The notes under the pieces are model-generated. The model was given only the letters and a program-made list of their open reading frames with translations, made no database searches and was not told where the DNA came from. From NCBI GenBank assembly GCA_026416895.1, contig JAOAEH010000029.1, positions 228-64,227 of the forward strand: 64,000 bases of DNA, in the 5' to 3' direction. Source of the DNA: Elusimicrobiales bacterium (GTDB lineage Bacteria > Elusimicrobiota > Elusimicrobia > Elusimicrobiales > UBA9959). The position numbers and the translations under genes are program-made. This document shows, in pieces, positions 8,779 through 63,464 of this stretch. Numbering within the stretch: the first letter of the stretch is position 1; each line of letters begins with the position of its first letter.

Positions 8779-9041
8779 GTTTTAGGTATAAGATAAAAAA
8801 AATCGGAAAAAAGAATAATCAATTGTTCAAGAACTATCTTTCCAAACAAAAAAACTAAAACAATCATTACAAAAATTTTGGGGACAAAAGAAACAGATGC
8901 ATCTTGAATATGTGTAACTGTTTGAAATATTCCTATAGCAAGTCCAACTAAAACTGACGTAATCAAAAAAGGCAAAGAAATTTTCATAGTAACTGTTAAT
9001 GCGTATTTTATTAATGATAAAAATGCTATTGATTCACTCAT
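8766..9041 (-). CDS. fliQ: Flagellar export apparatus protein FliQ
   Basis: Two-TM protein (MSESIAFLSLIKYALTVTMKISLPFLITSVLVGLAIGIFQTVTHIQDASVSFVPKI...). The internal ATG at 9041 overlaps the fliP stop (9038) in ATGA fashion, so I trimmed the ORF-track start (9080). Confidence 0.85.
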   Translation of the reverse strand: MSESIAFLSLIKYALTVTMKISLPFLITSVLVGLAIGIFQTVTHIQDASVSFVPKIFVMIVLVFLFGKIVLEQLIILFSDFFYLIPKTCRM

Positions 9042-10129
9042 ATAAAACTTTTGTAAACTCCCTCCAATATTAATCTCCAACCATCAACCATAACAAATAT
9101 CAAAATTTTAACTGGAACAGATATCATAGCAGGAGGTAACATAATCATCCCCATAGACATAAGTATTGAAGATATCAATAAATCTATCACAACAAAAGGT
9201 ATGTATATCATAACTCCTATTTTAAAAGCTTTTTTAATTTCACTACATACAAAAGCAGGAATTAAAACTGAAAAAGGAACGGTTTGTGAATCTTTTATTT
9301 TTGATATTTCTATAAAAGTTTTTAACTCTTTTTCACCTGTATGTTTAATTAAAAAGGGAGTTATTATTTTTTTGCTTTCTTCAATCATTTGAGAATGTCT
9401 TATTTTTCCTTCTATATATGGTTTAAATACTTTTTCTGATAATAAATCTATTTCCTCCCTCATTATAAAAAATGACATAAATATACTCAATGCTGTAATT
9501 ATCTGGTTTGATGGAACCGACGGTAATCCTATAGCATGTCTTAGTATTGAAAGGGAAATAACAATCCTGGTGAATGGAGTTAGCATCAAAATTAAAGCAG
9601 GTGAAATAGCAAGCAAACTTATCAAAATAAATATATGTAGAAAGGAAGAGTTAGATGATATACTTTGTTCAAAATTATAAGCAAAACAATTTTCTAAACT
9701 AAATACAATCAAAAATATTAAAATTAAACTTATTCCTATATACTTTGAGTTCATAATTTCTTTCAAATATTTATCTACATTGTAATTTATTATTTTGTCA
9801 TTTTTTCTTATTTTACTTTTATTTTTTTCAACTAAAAAGGAATGATTTAATGAACTAAATATCAAATATTCATTTTCTTTAAATTCAACCAAGATAAGTT
9901 TTGAATTTTTATCAATATTTAAAATTGATTTTAATTTTATCTCTTGTTTCTTCTTCAAAATATCAAGCTGGTTTTTAAAAATTTTTTTATAAATTATAAA
10001 AATCCCAATTATTAGCAAAAATATATTAAAATAAATATTAAATTCTTTTTTAAACACTACAAACTCATTCAAAAATAAGATTAAACTTATTAAAGTAAAA
10101 ATTGAAAAAAACAGAAAAACTTTTTTCAT
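9038..10129 (-). CDS. fliP: FliO-FliP fusion: FliO-like N-terminal module joined to flagellar export gate protein FliP
   Basis: The C-terminal ~240 aa is FliP (LMLTPFTRIVISLSILRHAIGLPSVPSNQIITALSIFMSFFIM...MGMIMLPPAMISVPVKILIFVMVDGW). The N-terminal ~120 aa has TM helices followed by KLILVEFKENEYLIFSS..FLVEK, the FliO-type pattern. ATG 10129 overlaps the fliN stop as ATGA. Confidence 0.85.
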   Translation of the reverse strand: MKKVFLFFSIFTLISLILFLNEFVVFKKEFNIYFNIFLLIIGIFIIYKKIFKNQLDILKKKQEIKLKSILNIDKNSKLILVEFKENEYLIFSSLNHSFLVEKNKSKIRKNDKIINYNVDKYLKEIMNSKYIGISLILIFLIVFSLENCFAYNFEQSISSNSSFLHIFILISLLAISPALILMLTPFTRIVISLSILRHAIGLPSVPSNQIITALSIFMSFFIMREEIDLLSEKVFKPYIEGKIRHSQMIEESKKIITPFLIKHTGEKELKTFIEISKIKDSQTVPFSVLIPAFVCSEIKKAFKIGVMIYIPFVVIDLLISSILMSMGMIMLPPAMISVPVKILIFVMVDGWRLILEGVYKSFI

Positions 10130-10431
10130 TTTTTTTCTTCCTTCCAAGATAAAACTCTAACTCCAATTGTATCATCTAACATCACAATTTCTCCTTTCCC
10201 AACTTCTTTTCCATTAGCATATATAGTCAATGGATCTTGAGGAGATTTGTTTAGATTTATAACAGAACCAACTTCTAAATTTAAAAGTTCTTTAAAAATT
10301 ATGTTTATTTTAGTTATTTCAATAGATATTTCAACAGGTATATCCATTATAAATGATTCGCTTATTTTTGAGTTCTTACTAGTATCAGGAGTTTTGTTGA
10401 ACTCATTTATACTATTTAACATTTCGTTCAT
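10126..10431 (-). CDS. fliN: Flagellar motor switch protein FliN (SpoA domain)
   Basis: C-terminal SpoA pattern IPVEISIEITKINIIFKELLNLEVGSVINLNK...LTIYANGKEVGKGEIVMLDDTIGVRV. Confidence 0.9.
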   Translation of the reverse strand: MNEMLNSINEFNKTPDTSKNSKISESFIMDIPVEISIEITKINIIFKELLNLEVGSVINLNKSPQDPLTIYANGKEVGKGEIVMLDDTIGVRVLSWKEEKK

Positions 10432-10440
10432 TTCGCCTCC

Positions 10441-11238
10441 TTACTCAACTTCAGTCACTTTAATAGCTAATTTATTATTATGAATTCCGATCCTTCCTTT
10501 TATACACTTTTTATTTTCAAAAAAAATCCATACTAAAGAAGGGTCTTCTTTATCTAAGATTATTAAGTCATTATTTTTAATCTTAGAATAGTCCAATAAC
10601 GATAAATATTTTTTACCTAATATTATTGAAGCTTTGGTAGTAATATTAGTGAAGTCATATTTTTCACAAATGATTTTTTTTGAAAGAATATTTGACAGAT
10701 CAACTCTAGATAAGTTATCTCTTGCAATTTGTTGTGGTATTAAAAAATCAAAGTAAAACTCCAAATTATCTAGACACAACGCATATTTTATATAACATAC
10801 CTCTATATCTTCTTCAAAAATATCCTTTATACTATCTGATGTCTTTAATAAACAATCACTTAAATTAATATATTTACCAAAGAGATCTATAAAACTTTCA
10901 AATATAGGAACAGCAAATTTATTTAAAAAAACTATTTTGTTTATTTGAGAAATGTATTCAGTTTCTTCATTTGTTATATTTTTTATCAACACTTTAATTA
11001 AATCTATATCCCAAGCAATAGCTACAAAATTATCATCTAATTTAGTATATGTTATAAACCTATCTAAATTTTGATGTATTTTATTTATCCCTACTTCTTT
11101 TAGATGAACATTTACCTTTGTTTTCAGATGCTGCGATAAAAATTTTAATATATTTTTTTGCAGTTGTACAGAGATGATTTTTGTTATTTTCAAGAATAAA
11201 TTATTGTTTTTATTCATTTTTACTACCATATAACTCAC
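10441..11238 (-). CDS. fliM: Flagellar motor switch protein FliM, short form lacking the canonical N-terminal CheY-P docking peptide
   Basis: The middle domain and C-terminal SpoA-like segment (ASIILGKKYLSLLDYSKIKNNDLIILDK...GRIGIHNNKLAIKVTEV) align by eye to FliM. Position is between flhF and fliN. Start is uncertain: GTG 11238, ATG 11229 or ATG 11217. Confidence 0.8.
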   Translation of the reverse strand: MSYMVVKMNKNNNLFLKITKIISVQLQKNILKFLSQHLKTKVNVHLKEVGINKIHQNLDRFITYTKLDDNFVAIAWDIDLIKVLIKNITNEETEYISQINKIVFLNKFAVPIFESFIDLFGKYINLSDCLLKTSDSIKDIFEEDIEVCYIKYALCLDNLEFYFDFLIPQQIARDNLSRVDLSNILSKKIICEKYDFTNITTKASIILGKKYLSLLDYSKIKNNDLIILDKEDPSLVWIFFENKKCIKGRIGIHNNKLAIKVTEVE

Positions 11239-12085
11239 TTATGAAAATATCAATATATTTTTCTTTTTGAAAACTTTCAAATATTATCTTTTTTGATTTT
11301 TTTGATGTAAATCCCAATAAAAAACCTGGAATTTTCTTAGAAGTTTCAAAAACGACTAATTTAGATAATACTTCATCGATTTTTGTTATGACTTTAATCA
11401 AATATCTTACATCAACAAATAATTTATTCCACTCATGAGATGATGGATATTTAGCTGCTTCAAAACATACTATTAACCCTAACTCATTTTCCCTTTTTAT
11501 AATCTCAATTAGTTTATATATTTCTGATAGGTTTATTGAGTTTAATTCTACAAATAGAATTTCATTGTTTTTTACCTTTGGTATAGTTAGTTTTTTTGTA
11601 GTGATATACTTTGTTTCTTTAGACTTTAAATTTGATATATAACTTTTAATAAATGCTGTTTTTCCACTGTTTTTTGGTCCTACTACATAATAGATATTCT
11701 TTTCTAGTTTTGATATCTCTAAAAAATTCCTCTCAAAATACTGAAAAATATCATTTATGTCATTAGATATTGATGCAATCTCATATGCGAAATCAACTGA
11801 TATATCTTTTTTTAAAAATTTTATTAAATCATTCTTAAGCTGATTTTTCTCTTTTAATTCTTCTATTGACTTTGATAGAATTAAAATTTTACTTTGTATC
11901 TCATTTAATATATTCAAATTTTCTTGCTTTTTCTGAGCAATTATTTGAATTTTTTCTTTTCCCAAACCTAAAAATGGTCTAACTTTCCTAGTTCCAATTA
12001 TTTTAGCGTCAGCTCCTAAAGTTTCCTTTACAAGTCTTAACGCATCAACTATATTGTATGCTTCAAAAGTACATATTTCAGACAT
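11210..12085 (-). CDS. flhF: FlhF-like flagellar biosynthesis protein (SRP-type GTPase family, reduced/degenerate G domain)
   Basis: FlhF-type N-terminus FEAYNIVDALRLVKETLGADAKIIGTRKV, P-loop-like VVGPKNSGKT, G4-like ITKIDE. Located directly after flhA. Confidence 0.75.
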   Translation of the reverse strand: MSEICTFEAYNIVDALRLVKETLGADAKIIGTRKVRPFLGLGKEKIQIIAQKKQENLNILNEIQSKILILSKSIEELKEKNQLKNDLIKFLKKDISVDFAYEIASISNDINDIFQYFERNFLEISKLEKNIYYVVGPKNSGKTAFIKSYISNLKSKETKYITTKKLTIPKVKNNEILFVELNSINLSEIYKLIEIIKRENELGLIVCFEAAKYPSSHEWNKLFVDVRYLIKVITKIDEVLSKLVVFETSKKIPGFLLGFTSKKSKKIIFESFQKEKYIDIFISELYGSKNE

Positions 12086-14114: not shown

Positions 14115-14844
14115 CTTTATTTTGTTTTTTCTCTTCTTTCAATATAATTATCTCAACCCTTCTATTTCTTCTTCTACCTTCATCTGTTTTGTTATCTGAA
14201 ACAGGGTTGGTATCCGCTAAACTACCAGATACAAATCTTTTTAAATCAATATTTTCATTAAAAATCAAAAACTCAGATGTTTTTTCAGCTCTTCTCATCC
14301 CTAAATGCCAATTTGATGGGAATAAACTATTTTTTATTGGTACATTATCAGTATGTCCTAAAATTTTTATTTTATTTTTTACTTTTTTTAAATAAGGAGA
14401 AATCTTTTTTAAAGTTTCTATACCTTCATTTTTCAATTCAGCCTTTCCTGTATCAAACAGCACTCTTTCTTCCATATCTATTATCAACCCTTCTTCACTC
14501 ATTCTAGCTGTGATACCACTACCTTTAGCCTCATTTTTCTCTATTTCCTCTCTTAATTTTTCTAGTCCTTTTTCATCACATAATTCATTTTCTTTTTCAC
14601 CAGATGATTCTTTTCCTATTATCAAACTAAATTCTTTGTTATTACCATACAATTTTTCTTCTTTATCAGGATTTAAAACTTTAACCATTGCTCTCATTGC
14701 CTTTTTAAACTTTTCAGTATCTTGTTGAGCAGTTGAATATAAAACTACAAAAAGTCCTAGTAATAATGTAATCAAATCAGCATATGTTAGAAGCCATCTT
14801 TCAGAATTTTCATGTTCCTCTTCATGATGTTTCTTTTTAATCAT
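14098..14844 (-). CDS. motB: Flagellar stator protein MotB (OmpA-like C-terminal domain)
   Basis: ERWLLTYADLITLLLGLFVVLYS plug/TM with the conserved Asp. C-terminal OmpA-like GHTDNVPI...SNWHLGMRRAEKT...NRRVEI. Confidence 0.9.
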   Translation of the reverse strand: MIKKKHHEEEHENSERWLLTYADLITLLLGLFVVLYSTAQQDTEKFKKAMRAMVKVLNPDKEEKLYGNNKEFSLIIGKESSGEKENELCDEKGLEKLREEIEKNEAKGSGITARMSEEGLIIDMEERVLFDTGKAELKNEGIETLKKISPYLKKVKNKIKILGHTDNVPIKNSLFPSNWHLGMRRAEKTSEFLIFNENIDLKRFVSGSLADTNPVSDNKTDEGRRRNRRVEIIILKEEKKQNKDDKQN

Positions 14845-15641
14845 ACTTTTAATGCCTCTTTTTTAACTGATTTTGAAGGAGAAAAATCTTGTTTTGATAT
14901 AGGTAGCATAGATGTAAGTTTTTGCCTAAGAACTCTAGGAGAAAAACCATTTTCAATTGCCATAATACCCTCAATAACTATTGAATATATCAACATTTCT
15001 TCTTGATGTTTGTTTTTAAGTTTATCTCCTATTGGTAAAAAAAATATATTAGCCATTAATACTCCCCAATATGTAGCAATAAAAGCTGCAGCAATTGAAT
15101 GGACAAGTTTTTCAGGGTCTCCTCCTGCATGTGAAAAAGTACTAATTAATCCCATTACGGTACCAATAACACCCATAGTTGGAGAATACCCACCCATTTT
15201 TGTAAAAATTCCTGCTCCAAAAGAATGTCTTTGACTCATATATTCCAACTCCATATCTGCTATTTCTTTTATAAGAGAAGGTTCTGTACCATTAATAAAC
15301 ATCTTCATGTATTTTTGTGCTATAGGCAAAGATAATTTTGAAACATCTTGTTGGAGAGATAATAATCCTTCTCTGCGAGCTTTTTCACATGCTATTACTA
15401 AATCATTTATTACTTTTTCTGGTTCAATTTTAGATTCAAAAATTGCTTTCAATGCAACCTTCCAAGCATCTAAAAACTTTTTGAAAGGGGTTCCGATCAT
15501 TGTAGCTGATATGGTTCCACCAAATATAATTAACATAGCAGGACCTTGTATAAGTGAGGAGACATTTCCACCTTCCCATAAAAAAGAACCTATTATACTA
15601 CCTATAGCAAGCACAAGACCTACTATAAGCCCAAGATCCAT
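14841..15641 (-). CDS. motA: Flagellar stator protein MotA
   Basis: MDLGLIVGLVLAIGSIIGSF..., MotA/TolQ/ExbB channel motifs (GTVMGLI, AAFIATYWGVLMANIFFLPIGDKL). Start set to ATG 15641, which has SD ggagg (15647-15651) and lies downstream of the promoter at 15658-15686. The ORF-track start 15686 would lie inside that promoter. Confidence 0.9.
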   Translation of the reverse strand: MDLGLIVGLVLAIGSIIGSFLWEGGNVSSLIQGPAMLIIFGGTISATMIGTPFKKFLDAWKVALKAIFESKIEPEKVINDLVIACEKARREGLLSLQQDVSKLSLPIAQKYMKMFINGTEPSLIKEIADMELEYMSQRHSFGAGIFTKMGGYSPTMGVIGTVMGLISTFSHAGGDPEKLVHSIAAAFIATYWGVLMANIFFLPIGDKLKNKHQEEMLIYSIVIEGIMAIENGFSPRVLRQKLTSMLPISKQDFSPSKSVKKEALKV

Positions 15642-15714: not shown

Positions 15715-16674
15715 TTATTTTTCTATATATCTAAAAACAAACGAAAAACCTTCCTCTTCATGGTTTATGAATTTCTCTATTAGGAATGTTTTGTTAGATT
15801 TAAGATTTTTAATCGAATTTGAAAGTTCAGCTATTGCTTCTTTTTGAGTATTAAAAATCCGTTTTGAATAATATGTATTTATTTCCGTCTTTTTGTTTGT
15901 TCTATAAATCCAGTCTATGAAAAAAGTAAAATTTCCATTCTCTTCATAAGTATCAAAATAAAAAATATCTAATCCTGCACCTTCAAATGAATTTACTGCT
16001 TTGATAGCAGCTTTGTAAGCATCAGAATATCTATCATATAAAAATCCAAAGTATCTTTTTATTTCAAATTTTTTAATCATTTTTTCATGTAAACAGACAG
16101 GATAATCTATGTAAATATATTCTTTCTCTTCATCTTCTTCTATTAAAAAATAAGGTCTGTTAGTATTAATAAATTTATTTTTAATAGATGTTTTTATTTT
16201 TTCTATTCTAAAACTATCATATATAGGCATCTTATATGTTTTGTGCTCTACATCTTTTAAGCAACCATGACCTATATATGGAAATAAATATGAGATTTTA
16301 ATTTTCTTAGAATACCTATCATTTTGCATTGTTAACAAATCTATATTTTTCAATTTTAAACTCTTCATGACATCTTTTTCTAATCTATTAGAATAATCTA
16401 TTTCATAATCTTTAATTTCAAAATACTGACATTTTTTTGATGGTTTATAATCTAATTCAAAGTAATAATTGCCATTTTCAGATTCATTAATTAGTATAGA
16501 TATCACTTTAAAATTAGAATTTTTAAAAGATTTTTCCAAGTCCATTATCTTTTTCCTTACTTCAGATATTTGACTGAAAAATTCATGAGATGTGTAAGTT
16601 TTTATATTATTAATCTTATTGCTACATTCATTTTCGTCAACTAAAAATAATATGTTTAAAATTAAAAATAACAT
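15715..16674 (-). CDS. Hypothetical exported protein with three PepSY-like (helix + beta-hairpin) repeats
   Basis: Hydrophobic N-terminus. Three modules each end in an E-x-G-x-aromatic hairpin: ...SILINESENGNYYFELDY, ...FYFDTYEENGNFTFFIDWIY, ...EKFINHEEEGFSFVFRYI. The start lies 3 nt after the porin stop. Confidence 0.35.
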   Translation of the reverse strand: MLFLILNILFLVDENECSNKINNIKTYTSHEFFSQISEVRKKIMDLEKSFKNSNFKVISILINESENGNYYFELDYKPSKKCQYFEIKDYEIDYSNRLEKDVMKSLKLKNIDLLTMQNDRYSKKIKISYLFPYIGHGCLKDVEHKTYKMPIYDSFRIEKIKTSIKNKFINTNRPYFLIEEDEEKEYIYIDYPVCLHEKMIKKFEIKRYFGFLYDRYSDAYKAAIKAVNSFEGAGLDIFYFDTYEENGNFTFFIDWIYRTNKKTEINTYYSKRIFNTQKEAIAELSNSIKNLKSNKTFLIEKFINHEEEGFSFVFRYIEK

Positions 16675-16676
16675 AT

Positions 16677-17795
16677 TTAAAATTTAAAATTTGTATCAAA
16701 GATAAAAACTTTTTCATTTTTCTGATTTTTATTGTTTGGTTTTGAGTATATATAATAAGGAATTAATGAAATATTTTTTGTTAAGTTTAGTGTTATCAAA
16801 ATTCTTGATGATTTAATACCAGTAGAACCACCATAATTTGATATATCTGGTAAAATATCTAAAAAAGAATCATTTTCAAGTTTTCTATAACTAAAAGCAA
16901 ATGATAAAAATTTAAAATCATTTTTCTTTTTAGAAAGTTCAAAACCATAGATTATAAAATCAGAATTTTTTGATATTGTTATGTTTTTGCCAATATTAGC
17001 ATAATAAATAAACGACATAAGATTTGAAATTGGTATTTCCATTTTAATATCAGTTGCTAAAATATTATAATCGTATTTATATTTTGAATTTACTTCAGAG
17101 TTAGAAAGTATATATGGACTTTGAGGCCTTGATATAAAGGTAGAAGTAGAGGTGTTTTTTATATACATAAAATCATAATATGTTAATGCAAACTTAGTAT
17201 ATTTAAAATCTAAACCAAATTGAACTATATTAAGTTTAGGATCTTTATCAGTAATAGAAAATTCTTGCATTAATAGAGGATTATATATAAACCATATATT
17301 TTTATTTTTAAGTTCAAAAGATGCTCCTTCAAATGTTATATCACTATCAATTAAAGAACTATTAGATGCCCATATATTGTTTTGAAATTTACCAATTACA
17401 AAATTGAAATTTTTTTTATTAAACATTAAATTTGCTAAACTTAAATTTATATTTTTATTAGCAAAACCTCCTGTTAAACTCTCAAAATTACTCCTTGGCT
17501 TAGACTTATCTCCAGTTGCAAAGCCAATTGTTAATTTTAAATTTTTATCTATGTTTTTTGATAGCTCAAGCTTTGTTTGAATCAAAAAAATATCTCTGTG
17601 AATTTGATAAATATTTTGTTGTCTAAAATATCTAAAAGTAAAAAGACCTTTTGTCTCTAAATCTTTTTTTTCTTCTTTATTTAAATAACTTTCATATTCA
17701 TCCTTGTTGATTATACCTTTTTCTATAAGAAAATTTTTTAAACTATCATTAGCATTTGAGTTCAAACTAATTAAAATTAAAAGTATTTTTATCAT
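16677..17795 (-). CDS. Putative outer-membrane beta-barrel porin
   Basis: Signal peptide MIKILLILISLNSNA, an N-terminal LKNFLIEKGIINKDEYESYL motif seen in putative-porin families, alternating amphipathic beta-strand pattern, and a C-terminal aromatic residue (...DTNFKF). Confidence 0.6.
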   Translation of the reverse strand: MIKILLILISLNSNANDSLKNFLIEKGIINKDEYESYLNKEEKKDLETKGLFTFRYFRQQNIYQIHRDIFLIQTKLELSKNIDKNLKLTIGFATGDKSKPRSNFESLTGGFANKNINLSLANLMFNKKNFNFVIGKFQNNIWASNSSLIDSDITFEGASFELKNKNIWFIYNPLLMQEFSITDKDPKLNIVQFGLDFKYTKFALTYYDFMYIKNTSTSTFISRPQSPYILSNSEVNSKYKYDYNILATDIKMEIPISNLMSFIYYANIGKNITISKNSDFIIYGFELSKKKNDFKFLSFAFSYRKLENDSFLDILPDISNYGGSTGIKSSRILITLNLTKNISLIPYYIYSKPNNKNQKNEKVFIFDTNFKF

Positions 17796-18854: not shown

Positions 18855-19268
18855 TTACTTATTTAAATTACAATATAAGTACACACTACCTTCTTCAAAA
18901 AATATTTTAGTTGAGCAAGAAAAATTGTAAGCATCTATATCAAGTTTTTCAACAAAAATAGGTGGAGATAATTTAAATCTCTTTTTATCTGTAAAAGTTT
19001 CAGAAAGTATATTACCACATATTATGTTTAATATCTCTTTTCCGCATTCTTTTATATCATTCTTATCATCACTAATAATAGAATTAATATACTCAAGTAA
19101 ATTTTTTTCTATTTTCATTATCATATAACCATTCTTCTCACCAGTGAAATCTATTTTAAAATTTAAAAATTCGTTTTCATTTTTGAGATTGTTTTCTATT
19201 GGAGTTAAAAATACTAAATTTGCAAAAACATTTGCTGCTGTTATATAAAGCTTGTCATCTTTTCCCAT
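18855..19268 (-). CDS. CheX/CheC-family-like chemotaxis protein (putative CheY-P phosphatase)
   Basis: ExxN motif in KECGKEILNIICGNIL with a Pro ~21 residues later (KLSPP), resembling the D/S-x3-E-x2-N-x22-P signature. ATG 19268 has SD GGAGGG. The ORF-track start 19340 would overlap cheY by 86 nt. Confidence 0.55.
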   Translation of the reverse strand: MGKDDKLYITAANVFANLVFLTPIENNLKNENEFLNFKIDFTGEKNGYMIMKIEKNLLEYINSIISDDKNDIKECGKEILNIICGNILSETFTDKKRFKLSPPIFVEKLDIDAYNFSCSTKIFFEEGSVYLYCNLNK

Positions 19269-19638
19269 ATATCCCTCCAGTGATTTCTGATATTTTAGAA
19301 CTAAAAAACTCTGGTGTAAATGGTTTATGAATAAAACCAACTATTTTGCCCTTTAAATATTCCATTGTATCATAGCTTTTTTCTGTTGATATAACAAGAA
19401 TAGGAATATCATTATAAACAGTATTTTTCTTTATTTCATCTATCATCTCTATACCATTCATAATAGGCATATTTATATCAGCAAGAATTAAATCGATCCA
19501 ATTCTTTTCTAATATATCTAATCCTTCTTTTCCATTACCAGCTTCAAAAAAAACACAATTATCGATATTAGACATCTCAATTGTTTTTTTAATCATTTTC
19601 CTCATAACAGGGCTATCATCAACTATGAGTATATTCAT
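19255..19638 (-). CDS. cheY: CheY-like single-domain response regulator
   Basis: MNILIVDDSPVMRKMI...LILADINMPIMNG...ISTE...IHKPF. Confidence 0.9.
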   Translation of the reverse strand: MNILIVDDSPVMRKMIKKTIEMSNIDNCVFFEAGNGKEGLDILEKNWIDLILADINMPIMNGIEMIDEIKKNTVYNDIPILVISTEKSYDTMEYLKGKIVGFIHKPFTPEFFSSKISEITGGIYGKR

Positions 19639-20158: not shown

Positions 20159-20965
20159 TTATACTTTTAGATATATAGCAGGTTGAATATATTTAAAGCA
20201 ATGTTTAATAGAGTTTAGACTTTCTGAATGACCTACAAACAGATAACCACCACTTCTGAGTATATTATAAAACCTATTAACAAGTGTTTCTTGTATCTGT
20301 TGAGTAAAATAAATCATTACATTTCTACAAAAAATTATATCAAAAGGTCCATTCATAACCCATTTATCTAATAAATTTAAAACAGCAAAACTTACAAGTT
20401 TTTTTATATCATCTTTTATTTTAAATAGCTTTTTCTTTGAATCAACAATTTCAAAATATTTTTCTATTTTTTCTTTAGGAATTAGTTTAATATCTTCAAA
20501 ATTATAAATAGCGTTTTTTGCTCTTTCAATCATACGTGATGAAATATCTGTGGCAAGAATTCTTTTATTGGATTCGTTTCCAAAAAATTCTTTTATTTCT
20601 ATTGCTATAGAATATGGTTCCTTACCATCCGAACAACCAGCACTCCATATAGTAAGATTTTTATTTTTATAGTTAGGAAATATATTGTTTTTCATGAACT
20701 CAAAATGTTTTATTTCTCTAAAAAAATCAGTTTTGTTAGTTGTAAGTATATCAATCATATTATAAAGTTCTTTTGTATCTTTCTCAATAAACTTAATATA
20801 ATCAATAAAATTACTAAAACCAAGTTCCAAAATTCTTTTTGAAAGTCGTGTTTTTACTAAATCTTTTTTAGAATCGTTTAGATAAATACCAGAGATAAAA
20901 TATAAAATTTCTTTTATCTTTTTAAACTCAAATTCTCTAATGATAACATCTTTTATATCAAACAT
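20159..20965 (-). CDS. cheR: Chemotaxis protein methyltransferase CheR
   Basis: TTNKTDFFRE, IWSAGCSDGKEPYSIAI, ATDIS, IFCRNVMIYF, GGYLFVGHSE. Confidence 0.95.
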   Translation of the reverse strand: MFDIKDVIIREFEFKKIKEILYFISGIYLNDSKKDLVKTRLSKRILELGFSNFIDYIKFIEKDTKELYNMIDILTTNKTDFFREIKHFEFMKNNIFPNYKNKNLTIWSAGCSDGKEPYSIAIEIKEFFGNESNKRILATDISSRMIERAKNAIYNFEDIKLIPKEKIEKYFEIVDSKKKLFKIKDDIKKLVSFAVLNLLDKWVMNGPFDIIFCRNVMIYFTQQIQETLVNRFYNILRSGGYLFVGHSESLNSIKHCFKYIQPAIYLKV

Positions 20966-22886
20966 TTGAAGTTACAAAAACATTTTCTTTCTTAAAATTT
21001 TCTTTATAAAACTTTATTATTCCTTGTGGGTCAATTATAACTGCTACTCTACCATCTCCAAGAATGCATCCTCCAAGTATCCCAGGAAAATTTTTAATAC
21101 CAGTTAATGGTTTTGCTACAACCTGTTGTTTTCCTATTACATCATCAACCATTAATGCTATTTTTCTTTCCTTATCTTTTACTATTACAAATATACCATC
21201 AATATTTTTATTTTCCTTAGAAAATATTTTTCTCATTCTAAATACTGGAAGTACTTCACCTCTTAAATGAAAAACTTCATCCTTTGAATTAATTGAATAT
21301 AGCTTGCCTTCTTCTTTTTTTGCTAATATATTTACCGCATTTACAGGAATTACATATATATCATCATCAACTTTAACAAGCATTCCATCTGTAACAGCCA
21401 TAGTTAAAGGAAATTTCAACCTAAACAACGTAAATTTCCCTTCTTGAGTTTTTATTTCTATCTTCCCTCTTAATGCTTCAACACCCTTTTTTACAACATC
21501 CATTCCTACACCTCTACCAGAAATATCACTTATCTTTTCTGCTGTAGAAAAACCTGGCAGGAATATTAAGTCATATATGTCATTTTCATTTAATTGAATA
21601 TTAGGGTCAATTAAGTTTTTTTCTATAGCTTTTTTAAGAATCTTTTCTTTATTTAACCCTCTACCATCATCCTCAATTTCAAAAATCACATTTCCATCCG
21701 CATTGTATGCTCTTAGATTTATAGTACCTTTAGGATCTTTCCCTTTATTTATTCTTTCTTCTTTAGATTCTATACCATGATCTATTGAGTTTCTAAGCAT
21801 ATGAACAAGCATTTCCTCAACGGAATTAATCATATTTCTATCTATTTCTGTATCTTCACCACTAACTTTTAAAATAATTTCTTTATTCATCTTTCTTGAT
21901 AAATCTCTTGCAAGTCTTTGCATTTTGTTAAACATATTTTTTATTGGAACCATCCTAAGTGACATACCAAGTTCTTGGAGTTCTCTGACTATTTTTTCAA
22001 GTTGATGTGCTTTTTTTATCATCTCATGATTTTTCGATTCTTCTATTTTTTGAAAAATCATCGAAAAAGTTATTGACATTTCACCTATTGTGTCTATTAA
22101 TCTATCCAGTTTTTCTATTTTAACTCTGATTGTTTTGTCTTCTGATTGTTCATCATAATTTTTATTAAATTGATTATCATCAATTTTATTTTCATTTTGT
22201 ATTGTTTCAACTTTCTCATCTTTTATTAAATCATCAGCCTTTTTAATTTTTTCTATTATATAATCATAACCATCTGGTTTTTTAACAGTGTAGTTATTAT
22301 TTTCATCAGAAATTATTCTTTCAATATCATCTAAAAGAAACTTTACTACATCTATTGATTTCAATGATATATCCCCTAATTTTTTTGTGAAAGGAATTTT
22401 CCCTTCTCTTATTTTTGATAGAAGGTTTTCTACATGATGAGAAAATTCTGATATAAAAGAAAGACCAATAAATGATGATGTGCCTTTTATAGTATGGAAA
22501 CATCTAAAAACCTTATTTATACTTTCTTTATCATTAGGGTTTGATTCAAGTTTTATAATAGCTTCTTCTGCATTTTGAATATTTTCTCTTGATTCTATTA
22601 TAAAATCTTTTATTAGTTCTCTATCTGAATCTTTTGGTATTTCAAAAGAAATACTATATTGTTGCTCATTAGATTTTACATTATCGTTTAAACTCTGCCA
22701 ATTTAGTTCATCAATAACTCTAAACACATCCTTTATATCTAAACTCCCCTCTTTTGCTTTTATTAATGAATCTAAGATTTTATTATACTGATGATTATCC
22801 GTTGATTTAAGAATATTTATTACTTTTTCTAAATCTTGTTTTGTTTTTATATCGTTGATTAAAGCTGTTATTTCCTGTAAATCCAT
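20958..22886 (-). CDS. cheA: Chemotaxis histidine kinase CheA (P1-P3-P4-P5; no evident P2; ~85-aa N-terminal extension)
   Basis: P1 FRCFHTIKGTSSF, P3 TIRVKIEKLDRLIDTIGE, P4 HMLRNSIDHGIE / DDGRGL / GRGVGMDVV, P5 CheW-like C-terminus. Confidence 0.95.
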   Translation of the reverse strand: MDLQEITALINDIKTKQDLEKVINILKSTDNHQYNKILDSLIKAKEGSLDIKDVFRVIDELNWQSLNDNVKSNEQQYSISFEIPKDSDRELIKDFIIESRENIQNAEEAIIKLESNPNDKESINKVFRCFHTIKGTSSFIGLSFISEFSHHVENLLSKIREGKIPFTKKLGDISLKSIDVVKFLLDDIERIISDENNNYTVKKPDGYDYIIEKIKKADDLIKDEKVETIQNENKIDDNQFNKNYDEQSEDKTIRVKIEKLDRLIDTIGEMSITFSMIFQKIEESKNHEMIKKAHQLEKIVRELQELGMSLRMVPIKNMFNKMQRLARDLSRKMNKEIILKVSGEDTEIDRNMINSVEEMLVHMLRNSIDHGIESKEERINKGKDPKGTINLRAYNADGNVIFEIEDDGRGLNKEKILKKAIEKNLIDPNIQLNENDIYDLIFLPGFSTAEKISDISGRGVGMDVVKKGVEALRGKIEIKTQEGKFTLFRLKFPLTMAVTDGMLVKVDDDIYVIPVNAVNILAKKEEGKLYSINSKDEVFHLRGEVLPVFRMRKIFSKENKNIDGIFVIVKDKERKIALMVDDVIGKQQVVAKPLTGIKNFPGILGGCILGDGRVAVIIDPQGIIKFYKENFKKENVFVTSNV

Positions 22887-22903: not shown

Positions 22904-22932
22904 AAAATAGGGGGCAGGTATTGCCCCCTATT
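22904..22932 (-). terminator. Intrinsic terminator after the hemerythrin-MCP gene
   Basis: The minus strand reads TAA-tagggggca-atacc-tgcccccta-TTTT. It is a GC-rich 9-11 bp stem that includes the stop codon, with a 5-nt loop and a short U tract. The cheA SD and ATG follow, so partial read-through is plausible. Confidence 0.6.
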
Positions 22933-25480
22933 AAAATGTTTTCAATACTGCTTCATTTTCAAGTGGAATTACAGAAGAAGGATCTAATTTTTGATTTTTT
23001 TGAATATTGTTTTGAATGATTTTATTTTGTTTATTAGATTTTTGTGTTGTAGAAGTTATTGCAGATGTTTTAAATTCTGAAATCATCTTCATAAGTTCCT
23101 GAGCTTGACTTGAAAGCTCTTGACTTGCGCTTGCTGATTCTTCACTGCTTGCTGCGTTTGATTGAGTTATTTGATTTAGTTGAGTTATACCTGTATTTAT
23201 CTGCTCTACTCCTTGTTCTTGTTGTTCACTTGCCGCTGTAATTTCAGATACAATCTGTGAAACTTTAATAGCTTGATTGCTTATCTCTTCTAACTTCTTT
23301 TTTACCTCCTCATTTATCTCAACCCCCTTTTGAGCATCTCTTAATGCCTCTTCAATTATATTTGCAGTATTTTTTGCAGCTTCAGCGCTTCTCATAGCAA
23401 GATTCCTAACTTCTTCTGCAACAACAGCAAAACCTTTACCAGCTTCTCCTGCTCTTGCTGCTTCAACTGCCGCATTTAGTGCTAAAAGGTTTGTTTGGAA
23501 TGCAATTTCATCTATTGTTTTTATAATCTTTGCAGTTTCATCGGATGATTTCTTAATTTTTTCAATCGCATCAGTAAGCTGTCTCATTTTTTCCATTCCT
23601 TCTTCACTAACGGTTTTTGCTTTCTCACTCATTACTTTGCCTTCTCTTGCATTTGCTGCGTTTTGTTTAGACATAGATGCTAATTCTTGGATGCTTGAAC
23701 TTATCTCCTCAATTGAACTAGCTTGTTCACTTGCTGCTTGTGCTAATGATTGAGCTCCAGAGCTTATCTGTGAAGCAGCAGAAGAAACCTGTTCAGTTGC
23801 ATATATCACCTGTTTTATGACTTCTTCAATGTTTGATAATGATTTGTTAATTGAATCTGCAAGCTTTTTGAAATCTCCCTTATAGTCTTTGGTTATTCTT
23901 TGTGTTAAGTCTTTCTGAGCAACTTTTTCCATTACATTTGATACTTCATTTATAGGTTCAACTATAGTATTTATAAGTTTATTTATATCCTCTACAATAT
24001 TTTTGAATTTACCTTGATGTTTTGAAGTATCAGTTCTTTGAGAAAGATTTCCATCAATAGCGCTTGAAATCAAAATATTTATATCTGAGATAAGAGTATT
24101 TATAGTATCTTTTAGTCTATTTAAAGCAGGAGCAATAAGATCAGCATCATCTTTTGGTATAAAGTTCCAGTTTAAATCACCTTTTGAAGTTTTTATTAAT
24201 GCATCAATAACCTCATTTTGTAAATAATCAGCAAATTTATCCATTTTCTTTGCAAGTTCCCCAATCTCATCGTTGGTATCTAAATTCATCCTTTTATCTA
24301 AATGTCCTTTTGAAAACTCATCCATCATCTCTACACCCTTTTTAAGCGGCTCAGTTATAAGTTTAGTTAGATAGAAAGATACAAAAACTGCAAATATAAA
24401 AGAACCAATCAAAAATGCCACAAGTATCACAAATGTTTCGTTTGCTAAATCAGTATTTGTGTCCGCTATTATGTTTCCTATATCTTTTGCAATTTTAGTA
24501 ATATTATCTGATAAGTTCAAAATACTTTCAATAATTACAGCACCTTGTGAAAGTTTAGCAATTATCTCTGCATTTGATTTATTATTTTTAATTAAAAGTA
24601 TTACATCAGATATAAGTTTAGTATATTCTTTTTCATCCTCTTGGAATTTTAACAAAATATCATAAATTTCTTTTCTTTTTTCTTCTATTTTATCTATCTT
24701 AGATAATTCTATTTTTTTATTTTTATATTCTATCTTCCAATAGTTATCCGGGCTATAGATAGATATTAATTCCTTTAAGCTTACTCCAATTTTTTGATTT
24801 TTTTCATCTACTTCTTTTATGTATTTTTCTGCATTGTTTGTTCCTTTATATAAAGCTGCTTGATAAATTTTTACTCTTCTCTCAGTTATAATTCTTATTG
24901 TATTTTCAACTTGTTGAGTCGGAATCATTCCCCGCTCGTAAAGAAATGTATCATATTTGTCTATTTTTCTAATATCATATAAACCAATTAAACCAACAAC
25001 TACAGTTATTATTGTTAAAGCACCAAAGCCAATCATAAGCTTTTTGCCAACTTTTAAGTTTTTCATAAAACCTCCTTTTTTATATAGAAAATTGTTATAA
25101 AAAATCCCATATTTTTTATCTTCCACATTTATGTGATTTAATAACCATTTTTTTAGAAAAACCATAATATCTGAAGATACTCCTATTGAGCTTTTATTAA
25201 GATTGTTTTCAAACTCAGTTACTTTATCTATAAAAACTTTATGGAGTTTTTTATGATTATGATAATCATTAAATTTTATAGATTTCTGAAATATTTCCTC
25301 TTCATTAAAATGATTTTGTGTGTATTCTTTAAGTTCATTTATAATTGACACAATTTCATCATATGAATTGTTAGAACCCATGAAATCATAAAGTTTATTT
25401 ATAATTCCTATAAGTTTTTTGTGTTGTTCGTCAAACCTTTTTATACCTACAGAGAAACTATCATTCCACTCTATAAACAT
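22931..25480 (-). CDS. Methyl-accepting chemotaxis protein with N-terminal hemerythrin domain (Hr-TM-periplasmic domain-TM-HAMP-MA)
   Basis: Residues 1-~130 carry the hemerythrin ligand pattern (FDEQHKKL; NHFNEEE; HNHKKLH; [10 protein letters not shown]). TM1 is [21 protein letters not shown] and TM2 is [26 protein letters not shown] is present, and the MA domain reads [36 protein letters not shown]. Confidence 0.9.
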
Positions 25481-25483
25481 AAA

Positions 25484-25894
25484 TTACCCTATTATATTTT
25501 TAGATTTTGCAAACTCACCGTATTTTTTATCTTCAACTTGAATATGCTTAGTAAGCCATTCCTTTAAAAAATTAATTATATCTACGCTCAAACCAATCTG
25601 TCCTCTTTTAAATCTACTTTCAAAATCCCCTACTTTTATGACAAATGCTTTATGTGAATTTATATGAGATTGAGATTCATTAAAATTTATCTCTTTGAAA
25701 AAATCTTCCTCATTTTTAAAATGTGTTTGAGAATATTTTATCAACTCAGAGATAATACCTCCCAATATATCCTTTGATTTTCCTTGTGACATTGCCAAAT
25801 TTAGATGGTTTATTAAAGAAACCAATTTTTTATGTTCTTGATCAAACTTATCTATTCCTACAGAAAGAGATTCATTCCAATTTATTAAATTCAT
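25484..25894 (-). CDS. Stand-alone bacteriohemerythrin
   Basis: 136 aa with FDQEHKKL; THFKNEE; HINSHKAF; KHIQVEDKKY. Clear paralogue of the MCP N-terminal domain. Confidence 0.9.
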   Translation of the reverse strand: MNLINWNESLSVGIDKFDQEHKKLVSLINHLNLAMSQGKSKDILGGIISELIKYSQTHFKNEEDFFKEINFNESQSHINSHKAFVIKVGDFESRFKRGQIGLSVDIINFLKEWLTKHIQVEDKKYGEFAKSKNIIG

Positions 25895-26387: not shown

Positions 26388-26876
26388 TTATACCTCCTCA
26401 AAGAGTTTTATTAACATCTTTTGATTATCAAAAGATTTAAAACACATTTTAGCTATCTCTTTCATTTTTGGAGTTGAATAGGTATAACTTTTTCCTTTAA
26501 TTACCGTAGGAAGAGATAAAGATAATTCCGTTTCAGATGGAAGTTTTGATTTTATATTTCCTGCTATCATATTTGCTAATTCACCAAAAGCATCACTAAC
26601 AGCTTCAGACCATTCATTTATCTCTTCCATCAACATAGCAGATGCAACTTTAATCGCAAATTTTTCATCTGTTTCGATAACAACAGTATATTTTTTCTTC
26701 CCACCAATACCTAAAAAAACACTTACTTCTACACTACCATTAAACTCTTCCTGACAGCTTGTTATTTCATTAGCAAGCATAGTCATAAATATATCACGTA
26801 CTACTGAGTCTATTTGATACGATATATCTTTAACACTAAATGTTTCTTTCATATTACATTCCATTTTATACTCCAT
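26388..26876 (-). CDS. cheX: CheX-type CheY-P phosphatase
   Basis: D-x3-E-x2-N-x~22-P signature in SDAFGELANMIAGNIKSKLPSETELSLSLP. Size and position next to cheY fit. Start may be M4 or M9. Confidence 0.75.
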   Translation of the reverse strand: MEYKMECNMKETFSVKDISYQIDSVVRDIFMTMLANEITSCQEEFNGSVEVSVFLGIGGKKKYTVVIETDEKFAIKVASAMLMEEINEWSEAVSDAFGELANMIAGNIKSKLPSETELSLSLPTVIKGKSYTYSTPKMKEIAKMCFKSFDNQKMLIKLFEEV

Positions 26877-27234
26877 TTATTAGTTTTGTTATTTTTTCTT
26901 GAATTGTTTCTTTTTTAAAAGGTTTTGTTATGAAATCAGACGCTCCAGCATTAATCGCTTTTTGTACATTTGAAATTTCATTTTCTGTTGTCAGCATTAT
27001 TATTGGAATTTTCTTCAAATTATCATCTGATTTTATATTTAATACCATATCATAACCATTCATCTCAGGCATATTCCAATCAGCCATTACAAGTGAATAC
27101 GAAGAGTCTGATTTTAATATATCTATTGCCTCTCTACCATTTGAAGCCTCTCCTACTTCATACCCAAGCTCCTTCATTATCCTTGAAACTATTACCCTCA
27201 TTGTTTTTGAATCATCAACAACAAGGATTTTCAT
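26866..27234 (-). CDS. cheY: CheY chemotaxis response regulator
   Basis: MKILVVDDSKTMRVIVSRIMKELGY...VMADWNMPEMNG...LTTE...ITKPF. Confidence 0.92.
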   Translation of the reverse strand: MKILVVDDSKTMRVIVSRIMKELGYEVGEASNGREAIDILKSDSSYSLVMADWNMPEMNGYDMVLNIKSDDNLKKIPIIMLTTENEISNVQKAINAGASDFITKPFKKETIQEKITKLINGV

Positions 27235-27248: not shown

Positions 27249-27632
27249 TTAAATACTTTCAATAATCTGTATTAGTTTTAATTCACTTTCTTTAAAATCT
27301 TTATCTTCCAATCCTTCATTTTTTATCTTCTCAAAGCTTATCTTTATATTTGAAATACACTCTTCTATAATTGGTATTTTATTTGAAGGTATATTTTTAT
27401 TTAAATTTTTAAGCTTTGTAAATAAATTTTCAATTTCCTTTAAAATCTTTGCTGTATTATCAAATCCCATCTGCATAAACATACCTTTCAATGTGTGCGT
27501 AGATATTCTTATTGCTTCTTGTGCAGAATAATCTCCTTTTTTTAAAGCCTCCATAGCTTGTTCAATATCTTTTATCCTTAATTGAGCCTCTTCCAAAAAT
27601 ATTGATAAAAATTCATTTGTTGCTTCCATCAT
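27249..27632 (-). CDS. Stand-alone Hpt phosphotransfer protein resembling the CheA P1 domain
   Basis: 127 aa with EFLSIFLEEAQLRIKDIE...IRISTHTLKGMFMQMGF...ENLF, i.e. the HTLKG phospho-His context and four-helix layout of CheA P1. Confidence 0.8.
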   Translation of the reverse strand: MMEATNEFLSIFLEEAQLRIKDIEQAMEALKKGDYSAQEAIRISTHTLKGMFMQMGFDNTAKILKEIENLFTKLKNLNKNIPSNKIPIIEECISNIKISFEKIKNEGLEDKDFKESELKLIQIIESI

Positions 27633-28021
27633 TCCTCCATATTAAGAGTTTTTTTAATTTTTTTGAGAAGAGAATCTTTATTTATTGGTTTTGTTATATA
27701 CCCTTGAGCTCCAGCTAAAAAAGCTCTATCTAATGAGTTTACATCATCAACCGCAGTACACATAAGAACAGGGATGTTTGATGTTTTCTTATTGTTTTTT
27801 AATTCAATTAAAGTCTCCCAACCATCTTTGTTTGGCATATTTGCATCTAAAAGAATCAAAGATGGCTCTTCTTTTTCTGCTATTTTTAATCCTTCTTCTC
27901 CGTCTTTTGCCATAAGTATTTCAAAGTTATCCTTAGGAATATGACTGGCTATGACAGCTCTTATAAAGCCGTCATCATCAACTATTAATATTTTTGGTTT
28001 CTTTTTGAATAGTCCAAACAT
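27629..28021 (-). CDS. Single-domain response regulator (receiver only)
   Basis: KILIVDDDGFIRAVI...ILLDANMPNKDG...MCTA...ITKPI. No SD is visible before ATG 28021. Confidence 0.88.
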   Translation of the reverse strand: MFGLFKKKPKILIVDDDGFIRAVIASHIPKDNFEILMAKDGEEGLKIAEKEEPSLILLDANMPNKDGWETLIELKNNKKTSNIPVLMCTAVDDVNSLDRAFLAGAQGYITKPINKDSLLKKIKKTLNMEE

Positions 28022-28633: not shown

Positions 28634-28687
28634 ATTAAAGTTGGAACAAATTTTTTTGAGGATAATTTGATAGAGATTTGAAAATAA

Positions 28688-31835: not shown

Positions 31836-32459
31836 TTAACCTCCTTTAATTATATATCCAAAAGTTCTTTGATAACTATATATAAACCTAGCTAGATTAG
31901 CATCTGAAACATCATCTATTGAGATAAAAGATATTCTTGCTATCTTTATTTGTTTTTTTTCATTTAAATCACATACCCACCCTAAAGCCTCTGATTTATT
32001 ATTATCAATTGTAATTTTAATTAACAACATATCTCCTTTATTTATATTAACTTCTTGTTCTAAATAAATACTTATACCACCTATACTAATATCACAAGTT
32101 TTAGTACTTATTTCTTGTGATGATGAGTTTATACCATCTAATGTTTTTGAAATTGTTACATCAAGATTTACTGGAATACGAATCCAGTTTTTTCTATTCT
32201 CTAATCTTTTTATTTCTGACTGTATTTTGCATACAACTTTTGAATCTGAGAAGTCAATTTTTTCTATCAAACATGAAAATTCTTTTAATGAGTCATCATC
32301 ATATCTTATTATTAGATTTACTTCTTCATTTATATTTAAAATGTTTGTATGATCAATAGGAAGCAAAAACTCTATTTTATCTTCTTCATTTTTTTCTACA
32401 TAACTCCACATAACTACATTTCTATTTTTTGGTTTTATCTCAACTATTGGTTTTCTCAT
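31836..32459 (-). CDS. PilZ-domain protein, YcgR/MotI-like putative flagellar brake
   Basis: The C-terminal PilZ has RKNWIR (an RKxxxR variant of RRxxxR) and DISIGG (DxSxxG). An N-terminal beta-barrel-like domain is present. The gene sits between flgE and fliA. Confidence 0.7.
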   Translation of the reverse strand: MRKPIVEIKPKNRNVVMWSYVEKNEEDKIEFLLPIDHTNILNINEEVNLIIRYDDDSLKEFSCLIEKIDFSDSKVVCKIQSEIKRLENRKNWIRIPVNLDVTISKTLDGINSSSQEISTKTCDISIGGISIYLEQEVNINKGDMLLIKITIDNNKSEALGWVCDLNEKKQIKIARISFISIDDVSDANLARFIYSYQRTFGYIIKGG

Positions 32460-37250: not shown

Positions 37251-37798
37251 TTTAAAAACTGCTCCTTTAATATTTCTAATTGTTTTAAAATATCTATTTG
37301 TTTAAGTAAACCATCTGTTTTTATATAAATACCATCTTCAAATTCACCAGAAAATTCTATTCTTTCTTTAAAATTAGTAAGTTTTTCTTTTTCTATAATT
37401 TCAATAATTAATTCTTTAAACTTTAAAGGGAAAACTATTTTAGAATTATTTGTTCCGACTTGTTTAAGATGAGAATTGATAAAATTTATATATTTATCCT
37501 TTTCTATTTCATATTTCAATATTTTTTCGGCTATTGCAAAAGAAACTTCTAAAACTTTTGAGGTGAATTCGTTTTGAAGCTTTTTGTATTCATTATCAAA
37601 TTTGGATAAACTATCAGATAATAATTTAATATAATATGAAAGTTTAGAATATCCTTCTTCATAACCTCTTTTAAAACCATCTTCAATTGCTTTTTCTAAT
37701 TCTTCGTTTTTAAGTTCTTTATTTTTAATTTTGAATATTACTTTTTTTAAATCCTCTAATTCAACTGAAGAGAATCTATTTATACTTATATTGTTCAT
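37247..37798 (-). CDS. fliH: Flagellar assembly protein FliH
   Basis: 183 aa between fliG and fliI with a coiled-coil N-half (GFKRGYEEGY) typical of FliH. Confidence 0.75.
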   Translation of the reverse strand: MNNISINRFSSVELEDLKKVIFKIKNKELKNEELEKAIEDGFKRGYEEGYSKLSYYIKLLSDSLSKFDNEYKKLQNEFTSKVLEVSFAIAEKILKYEIEKDKYINFINSHLKQVGTNNSKIVFPLKFKELIIEIIEKEKLTNFKERIEFSGEFEDGIYIKTDGLLKQIDILKQLEILKEQFLK

Positions 37799-38760
37799 TA
37801 AGAAACTCCTTGCTCTAATAAGATTTTCTTAATTATTTTTGCTATTTTTTTTCTTGCATCATCTATATTCTTTTCTGAAATGTTTCCTAAACTTTCCATA
37901 TCTTCAGTAATTGCTGAAGCTGCTTCTTCAGTCATATTTTTAAAAATCTTTTCTGTAATTTTTTGCTCCGCATTTTTTAAAGCTATAACTAAAGTTTTTT
38001 GGTCAACGGATCTTAAAATTTTTTGAACTAATCTATCATCTAATTCAACAATTTTTTCAAAAGTAATCATCTTTTTCTCAACTTCATTATAAAAAGTTGG
38101 ATCTTCTTCTTTTAAAAATGACAAAATCTTTTGAGTTTCTTCCCTATTCATAAAACTTACTATTTCAGCAACTGTAACTGAAAAATTATCATTTTTATTT
38201 ATTTCTTTGGTATTCTCTATAAGTTCTTTTATTGCATTGCCTATCTGATTTATAGTTTCTTCATCTATTTCTTTAACCTTTTTCATATTAGAAAATATCT
38301 TTTTCTTTTTCTCATCATCAAACATAGAAATAAGTTCAACTGCTTTTTCTGTTTCTAAATTAACAACAACAACCGCTATTATTATTGGAGTTTCATTTTT
38401 AATAACAGAATATAATTTCTCTATGCTTGTATTTCTTATTACCTCAAAAGGATTTTTTTTGAAAATCGATTTTATTATACCTAATGCCTTTTTTTCACCT
38501 ATAGATAAAGATAATAGTTTTTTAATATTATCAATATCAAAATTGATTTTCTTATCTGAATGTGCTATTTTCTCATAAAATTCAGATATTATTTTTTCTG
38601 CATCTTCTTCTTTTATACTTTTCAAGTCATACATAATAGATACAATATCTGTTATAGTTTTCTCATCAAAACCTTGAATTATTTTAGAAGAAATATCTGC
38701 AGGAAGAACTGCAAGTAAAATTGCAATCTTTTCAATAGGGCTCATATTTTCAACTGGCAT
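37798..38760 (-). CDS. fliG: Flagellar motor switch protein FliG
   Basis: MSPIEKIAILLAVLPADISSKIIQ..., ...DDRLVQKILRSVDQKTLVIALK...EKIFKNMTEEAASAITEDME. Confidence 0.95.
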   Translation of the reverse strand: MPVENMSPIEKIAILLAVLPADISSKIIQGFDEKTITDIVSIMYDLKSIKEEDAEKIISEFYEKIAHSDKKINFDIDNIKKLLSLSIGEKKALGIIKSIFKKNPFEVIRNTSIEKLYSVIKNETPIIIAVVVVNLETEKAVELISMFDDEKKKKIFSNMKKVKEIDEETINQIGNAIKELIENTKEINKNDNFSVTVAEIVSFMNREETQKILSFLKEEDPTFYNEVEKKMITFEKIVELDDRLVQKILRSVDQKTLVIALKNAEQKITEKIFKNMTEEAASAITEDMESLGNISEKNIDDARKKIAKIIKKILLEQGVS

Positions 38761-63463: not shown

Positions 63464-63464
63464 T

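Follow-up and report, generated by a model that had tools for sequence, protein, structure and literature searches.

A short FliM without its CheY-docking peptide in a flagellar and chemotaxis gene cluster of an Elusimicrobiales bacterium

Here we describe the flagellar switch gene fliM in a 64,000-nucleotide stretch of an Elusimicrobiales bacterium (assembly GCA_026416895.1, contig JAOAEH010000029.1, positions 228 to 64,227), the whole of which we call the window, and find that it encodes a naturally short protein from which the N-terminal CheY-docking peptide (LSQxEIDxLL, or 'EIDAL') is missing. This peptide is the textbook entry of the chemotaxis signal to the motor; FlhG docks on it too, and in this way it controls C-ring assembly. 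In its N-terminally minimal form the gene (10441..11217, minus strand) specifies 258 amino acids plus a stop codon. From the sequence, the protein is best explained as consisting of a CheC-like middle domain (approximately residues 7-170; 10708..11199, minus strand) and a C-terminal SpoA (FliMN_C) domain (residues 192-257; 10447..10644, minus strand) only, with the ~45-residue N-terminal segment and the GGXG loop lost. A FliM without a CheY-docking peptide had been pointed out in an initial annotation of this DNA, and at the level of sequence that observation is confirmed.

As the initial annotation proposed, the open reading frame very probably encodes FliM, a conclusion supported by profile-profile alignment (hhalign), by an AlphaFold2 model compared with known structures in Foldseek, by the missing CheC/FliY motif and by gene position. 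At the C-terminus, PF01052 matches residues 192-257 (Pfam scan, E 5e-9), and the PDB profile matches of this SpoA domain are the FliM::FliN fusion 4yxb and T. maritima FliN (1o6a). The TIGR01397 FliM model matches at the C-terminus only, and the Pfam and NCBIfam FliM models find nothing over the first 190 residues. PF02154 has no match in window FliM even at E ≤ 1 (Pfam scan) and matches one relative with an E value of 0.0037, and a phmmer search of the window protein against all PDB sequences gave no match. The failure of the family models over the first 190 residues and of phmmer against the PDB would favour an artefact, that is, a truncated, pseudogenised or mis-assembled fliM, or a FliY/CheC-like SpoA protein; we regard this as highly improbable and largely refuted by the evidence given here on fold, gene start and relatives. 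When an alignment of window FliM with five relatives (A1) was compared by hhalign with an alignment of seven FliMs from fliP-neighbouring loci (A2), the two matched with a probability of 98.4% (E 7.8e-15), placing residues 11-257 opposite residues 56-324 of a 334-residue canonical FliM. With the SpoA domains removed, the middle domains aligned in the same register (158 columns, E 2.2e-4, probability 45%). Because the sequence signal of the middle domain is weak, FliM identity leans on predicted fold and gene order.

The AlphaFold2 model computed from A1 has a mean predicted local distance difference test score (pLDDT) of 69.5, mostly ~75-90 (blocks of 66-91) over residues 10-170, and its middle domain folds pseudo-symmetrically as helix, three strands and helix, then helix, strands and helix. 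In Foldseek against the PDB, the top matches are Salmonella FliM in the C-ring cryo-electron microscopy structures 8wiw and 8umd (E ~1e-9), followed by the FliM middle-domain crystals 2hp7, 4fhr, 3soh, 4gc8 and 7dm9, with target-normalised template modelling (TM) scores of 0.70-0.78 and a root-mean-square deviation of the model to 2hp7 of 2.8 Å. The best FliM matches, for which we quote E values of 5e-10 to 8e-8, span Salmonella, T. maritima, H. pylori and Vibrio. Matches to CheC and FliY come behind FliM (TM-scores of 0.53-0.63), and CheX further behind. By both Foldseek and hhalign the middle domain is therefore of the CheC-like FliM type. FliY of the Bacillus/Thermotoga type shares with window FliM a CheC-like domain followed by a SpoA domain; it differs in its N-terminal EIDAL peptide and its CheC-type phosphatase motifs, both of which window FliM lacks, and FliY 4hyn reaches a TM-score of only 0.55-0.57 compared with 0.70-0.78 for FliM. 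In a regular-expression search, the CheC/FliY phosphatase motif [DS]xxxExxN(x22)P and the FliY N-terminal EIDAL peptide were absent from all six members of the family. Structural comparison ranks FliM above CheC, FliY and CheX, and no CheC/FliY phosphatase motif is present; both points argue against a FliY/CheC-like protein. Position agrees as well: in the window, as in four relatives' loci, fliN and the fliOPQR export-gate genes adjoin fliM.

The longest fliM frame, 10441-11238 on the minus strand, runs for 265 residues from a GTG at 11238, as originally described. Immediately 5' of this GTG there is an in-frame stop, many further stops follow upstream in the same frame, and the other open frame upstream of fliM is the 3' end of flhF; an N-terminal extension is therefore impossible. 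Judging from the sequence, the real start is probably the ATG at 11217 (MNKNNN..., 258 residues), which overlaps the flhF stop codon (ATGAATAA), agrees with the start of the closest relative (P0002) and is the one used in NCBI protein MCX7905409.1 ('MAG: FliM/FliN family flagellar motor C-terminal domain-containing protein [Elusimicrobiales bacterium]', on a contig of 64,919 bp). A fliM start that overlaps the flhF stop is as expected for translational coupling, and counts against an artefact.

An exhaustive phmmer search of 1.84 billion representative proteins returned only five true relatives (P0002 to P0006), all matched over their full length, 257-291 residues long and 23-45% identical to window FliM. 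Their N-terminal tails (5-35 residues) are lysine- and glutamate-rich and differ from one another, and none of the five carries the docking motif. Loci were fetched for four of them, from NCBI (GCA_029267355.1), two Logan read-set assemblies and one ENA assembly, and all four show the order (cheA)-cheR-cheD-receiver-cheX-cheB-porin-unknown-motA-motB-flhA-flhF-short fliM-fliN-fliOP-fliQ-fliR-flhB, with fliM abutting or overlapping flhF in each. Five short, motif-free relatives of similar length and a gene order shared by independent assemblies mean that the peptide-less FliM is an old, maintained trait of the clade and not an artefact. The clade itself, for which NCBI gives the label Elusimicrobiales, is best explained as a small lineage of deep divergence, with this fliM as its genuine FliM orthologue. 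In all relatives examined, cheA together with cheR, cheD and cheB forms a chemotaxis block linked to motAB-flhAF-fliMN. Since this block keeps its place beside the motor genes even where FliM identity is down to 23-45%, we argue for a functional link, and on gene order a connection of the short-FliM motor to chemotaxis is plausible.

Other searches added little to this family. A word-indexed homologue search, whether started from the single protein or from the family profile, recovered only window FliM itself and P0006, and a metagenome scan with window FliM gave no match. When the genome collection was scanned with FliP, the best full-length matches were 46-48% identical, and one match at 67% (L027) lies on a contig that ends before fliM. 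No outgroup locus with an intact fliM came from the FliP searches; like L027, the locus of the closest FliP homologue (P0010) stops at a contig edge, in its case at FliP.

The first residue of window FliM corresponds to approximately canonical residue 46 in the profile-profile alignment (residue 11 lying opposite residue 56 of the 334-residue FliM), in agreement with the by-eye placement at residues 45-50 in the initial annotation. This is also where crystallised FliM middle domains begin; 7dm9, for example, covers residues 51-229. The expression [LIVM][ST]Q.[ED][IVL][DE].[LIVMF][LIVMF] has no match in the six frames of the window, and relaxed versions of the pattern match nothing but inner segments of other, unrelated proteins (CheW, CheA, Hpt and a histidine kinase) or tiny spurious reading frames. 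When a hidden Markov model (HMM) of canonical FliM was run against the six-frame translation of the window, only FliN and the fliM frame were matched, significantly so through the SpoA domain only, with a single weak stretch in the middle domain (domain E 33) and no match at the N-terminal positions of the profile. The docking peptide is absent from FliM, from its five relatives and from every frame of the window. The earlier statement that no LSQxEIDxLL motif occurs in FliM, in the FliN N-terminus or upstream is upheld by the regular expression, the HMM and the closed frame, and a search of the window by alignment and relaxed expressions for a divergent EIDAL-type motif found none.

Two neighbouring segments were considered as docking sites and rejected. 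The FliN N-terminus (MNEMLNSINEFNK...) contains no docking motif, and its tail is not conserved among the relatives; the FlhF C-terminal segment 'KYIDIFISELY' appears to be FlhF's own C-terminal helix.

The loss extends to the face of FliM that meets FliG. All six family members are without the GGXG loop, which contacts FliG; at this place the alignment shows 'IKNITN--EE' in window FliM and 'KFxxGxxxxK' in the relatives. GGXG is present in six of the seven reference FliMs, the seventh (L004) having GGAD. The rotor partner FliG is encoded in the window (37798..38760, minus strand; TIGR00207, 3.6e-54), and its FliM-contacting EHPQ(R/T) motif reads ETPII ('NETPIII'), where Aquifex and Salmonella have EHPQT and EHPQI. 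The FliG torque helix in the window is MTEEAASAITEDME; in alignment, NMTEEAASAITEDME stands against NMSKRAA..EDME and NMSQRAA..DDL of Aquifex and Salmonella, and within the segment NMTEEAASAITEDMESLGNIS the two arginine positions of E. coli carry E and S. We take these positions to be E. coli R281 (glutamate here) and R297 (S here). MotA (14841-15641) is well conserved but reads ARREGLLSLQQ where others read ARREGVLALEQ, the changed position, a glutamine here, being presumably E. coli E98, the partner of R281. Taken together, FliG and MotA seem to have changed in concert at one charge pair between rotor and stator.

Compared with canonical FliM (T. maritima 2HP7/4FHR, Salmonella 8UMD/8WIW), window FliM retains the CheC-like middle and SpoA core, the S/T-x-I-E segment conserved after helix 2, and a gene position just upstream of fliN and the export gate. 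It differs in lacking residues ~1-45, including LSQxEIDxLL, and the GGXG loop contacting FliG, and its divergence puts it beyond the reach of the Pfam and TIGR FliM models. Among 12 bacteria surveyed, most FliM sequences conserve the EIDAL motif (PMC6946799). FliMs without the motif are already known in nature, and what is different here is the setting in an apparent main flagellar cluster, the che genes in that same cluster, and the change of GGXG, of FliG EHPQR and of one FliG-MotA charge pair. The FliMs of Grimontia (L010, 8623-9516) and Photobacterium (L013, 8611-9513), for instance, are 298-301 residues long, start with 'M(V)MTK(R/K)SKII..' and lack LSQxEIDxLL, with GGXG kept; we take both loci to be lateral flagellar clusters, and their FliMs offer a useful set for comparison in nature. 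FliM2 of Shewanella putrefaciens is reportedly another natural FliM without the motif. In Pseudoalteromonas, the lateral FliM does not bind CheY and the polar FliM does, and such lateral systems occur alongside a primary flagellum that responds to CheY and has che genes in its cluster (PMC10304486). Window FliM resembles the lateral FliMs as a natural FliM of ~300 residues or less without EIDAL, but unlike them its gene shares a cluster with che genes, and no other fliM is visible in the window.

These lateral systems bear on the possibility that the motor described here is blind to CheY, being unidirectional or modulated in speed (through PilZ or the stator) much as lateral flagella are, with the che genes driving another output or a route outside the C-ring. 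Such a motor would be in keeping with the motif-free Grimontia and Photobacterium FliMs beside fliN-fliP, with the lateral Pseudoalteromonas FliM that does not interact with CheY (PMC10304486), with the several altered switch-interface motifs in the window and with the PilZ protein encoded in the cluster. We nevertheless consider it unlikely. The Grimontia and Photobacterium FliMs keep GGXG, so the short FliM is not simply of lateral type; the cheA-R-D-Y-X-B block is joined to motAB-flhAF-fliMN across a deeply diverged clade; and the presence of two CheX phosphatases together with a full adaptation set is what one typically sees in chemotaxis systems of flagella.

E. coli motors with an N-terminally deleted FliM (FliM-deltaN) offer a direct precedent for a chemotactic motor of this kind: in these, CheY still binds and gives clockwise rotation through sites on FliN and the FliM middle domain, at ~ten-fold more CheY (Afanzar et al. 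2021, PMC7957414). Both have a C-ring without FliM_N, but the E. coli case is a laboratory deletion, whereas here the state is natural and long kept, and partner motifs have diverged with it. It had been claimed at the outset that the switch input must be wired differently. The peptide is indeed missing and nothing in the window replaces it, but 'must' is too strong, because E. coli motors without FliM_N still bind CheY and switch (PMC7957414). Following this precedent, a tetherless motor could rely on the ordinary secondary sites that the FliM middle domain and FliN offer to CheY. We infer that CheY acts on the short-FliM C-ring in this way, and where it binds: phosphorylated CheY (CheY-P) would steer the motor by direct, untethered binding to lower-affinity sites on the FliM middle domain, on FliN or on both. 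We put forward such tether-free control at the remaining sites tentatively, judging its chances as a little short of even. In the same scheme, the PilZ protein would add a separate cyclic di-GMP (c-di-GMP) input to the motor and the lineage would have dropped the FlhG checkpoint on C-ring assembly. It is doubtful, to our mind, that CheY-P is coupled to the rotor without a FliM_N-type peptide by a high-affinity, remodelled surface of the FliM middle domain, FliN or FliG, or by an unrecognised adaptor, together with loss of the FlhG C-ring checkpoint; were it true, evolution would have given the bacterial flagellar switch a different input architecture.

The CheY candidate for tether-free control is of E. 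coli type (26866..27234, minus strand; NF007901 CheY, 2e-31). It keeps DWNMP (W58), T87, F106, K109, K119 and K122, as read from its translation against the key-residue list of PMC9321776. Taken as sequence, this pattern fits a motor-directed CheY and is not proof of one. The CheY face that carries these residues also binds CheA and phosphatases, so that its conservation is not diagnostic.

The same residues could be read as a sign that the docking peptide is supplied in trans, by a protein encoded outside the window (another FliM, one of FliY/CheC type, or a new adaptor) that joins the C-ring or bridges CheY-P to it, much as CheF does at the archaellum. W58, K119, K122 and the aromatic residue at 106 are residues that grip the FliM peptide, in other bacteria FliN and FliY sporadically carry EIDAL motifs (PMC6946799), and the window covers 64 kb of the genome. 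Even so, we find a peptide in trans rather improbable. The window is an apparently near-complete flagellar and chemotaxis regulon, yet it encodes two SpoA proteins only (FliM and FliN) and has no EIDAL-like motif in any frame; the CheY surface in question serves CheA and phosphatases too; and the loci fetched for four relatives show no conserved gene for a cytoplasmic protein of unknown function alongside fliM.

The loss of the docking peptide also has to be seen against its second role. The FliM N-terminal peptide is the docking site of FlhG in C-ring assembly (PMC12826062), and since the same peptide serves this second client, the presence or absence of flhG matters; the initial annotation had considered neither the FlhG-docking role nor the lack of flhG in the cluster. 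The flhF gene that abuts fliM (11210..12085, minus strand) is divergent, and its product is recognisable through the N-terminal B-domain only (FlhF model in the family scan; PDB 9en1). By eye, its GTPase motifs are degenerate, G1 reading 'GPKNSGKT' and the DTAG position of G3 'ELNS', with 'TKID' of G4 kept. No flhG was found 3' of flhF, and a MinD/FlhG-type P-loop is absent from every frame of the window and from two of the relatives' loci (L029 and L030). With no flhG after flhF and a degenerate FlhF GTPase domain, the lineage appears to have dropped the FlhG checkpoint, and loss of the docking peptide is consistent with loss of FlhG, its other client.

Several points weigh against tether-free control by CheY as we have described it. 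The sequence signal of the FliM middle domain is weak when taken alone (no Pfam match; hhalign probability 45%). A second fliM, a fliY, a cheC, an adaptor or flhG could lie outside the ~64 kb window. Position 91 of CheY 26866-27234 is E, not K. Finally, as GGXG, FliG EHPQR and part of the FliG/MotA charge pairing are altered, the switch may be different overall or unidirectional.

The remaining chemotaxis genes are present much as first listed, with two CheY-like proteins, a further single-domain receiver and two CheX phosphatases recognised by PF13690. The first cheX (26388..26876, minus strand; PF13690 1e-21, NF041094 1e-10) lies beside cheY. The second cheY-like single-domain receiver (19255..19638, minus strand) was assigned by a family-model match and stands in the same order beside cheD and cheX in the relatives; next to it is the second cheX (18855..19268, minus strand; PF13690 5e-10). 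The other receiver (27629..28021, minus strand; family-library scan) adjoins a stand-alone Hpt protein (27249-27632). CheA, CheW, CheR, CheB, CheD and a methyl-accepting chemotaxis protein were identified by reading translations only, and cheA (20958..22886, minus strand) has Pfam-annotated orthologues in two relatives' loci (L030 and L032). The chemoreceptor at 22931-25480 opens with a hemerythrin-like segment and is followed by a stand-alone, 136-residue hemerythrin-like gene (25484-25894); in one relative (L029), a Pfam-recognised hemerythrin gene lies within the che block. These genes suggest oxygen or redox sensing as a chemotaxis input. A PilZ-domain protein is encoded between flgE and fliA (31836..32459, minus strand; PF07238 1.2e-8), and a protein that by eye combines a receiver with a GGDEF-like domain stands at the end of the cluster (62597-63478), a receiver-GGDEF gene being found near the cluster in L031 as well. 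Together the PilZ and GGDEF genes hint at c-di-GMP control of the motor.

The window is very AT-rich (GC content 21-30%). Its first 6 kb carry two plus-strand histidine-kinase genes, and between ~7 kb and 64 kb the minus strand carries nearly all genes, as a single large flagellar and chemotaxis cluster; GC skew is slightly positive over the first 6 kb and persistently negative from ~6 kb onward, where all genes are on the minus strand. Around fliM, the order in the direction of transcription is motA, motB, flhA, flhF, the fliM frame, fliN, fused fliO/fliP, fliQ, fliR and flhB. FliN has 101 residues (10126..10431, minus strand; PF01052 9e-20, TIGR02480 1e-22). Next to it, fliO and fliP form a single 369-residue frame (9038-10147), in which an N-terminal transmembrane, FliO-like part precedes a FliP domain that starts at residue 175; this fusion recurs in the relatives (362-380 residues), with FliO Pfam matches in two to three of them. 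Between cheB and motA (15715-17795) lie genes for a Porin_5-like outer-membrane protein of 372 residues and for a conserved protein of ~320-345 residues with a hydrophobic N-terminus and no family match. Both are present here and in each of the four loci from relatives (L029-L032), and may be accessory proteins of the envelope or the motor that are specific to the lineage. Three adjacent genes between the che block and fliA (28160-31128) encode proteins of 157, 692 and 120 residues, the last with an N-terminal hydrophobic segment, and have no significant family match.

For the study of flagellar motors at large, one consequence is practical. The Pfam and TIGR FliM models miss the short-FliM family, and automated annotation says only 'FliM/FliN C-terminal domain protein', so that such organisms would be counted, wrongly, as having no fliM in surveys of genomes. 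A lineage that has long been without the docking peptide and that keeps a full chemotaxis set joined to its motor genes is a natural counterpart of E. coli FliM-deltaN. Its motor could serve to separate the contribution of the tether to switching from that of the secondary CheY sites, and the lineage could show whether the CheY-binding and FlhG-binding roles of the peptide vanish together.

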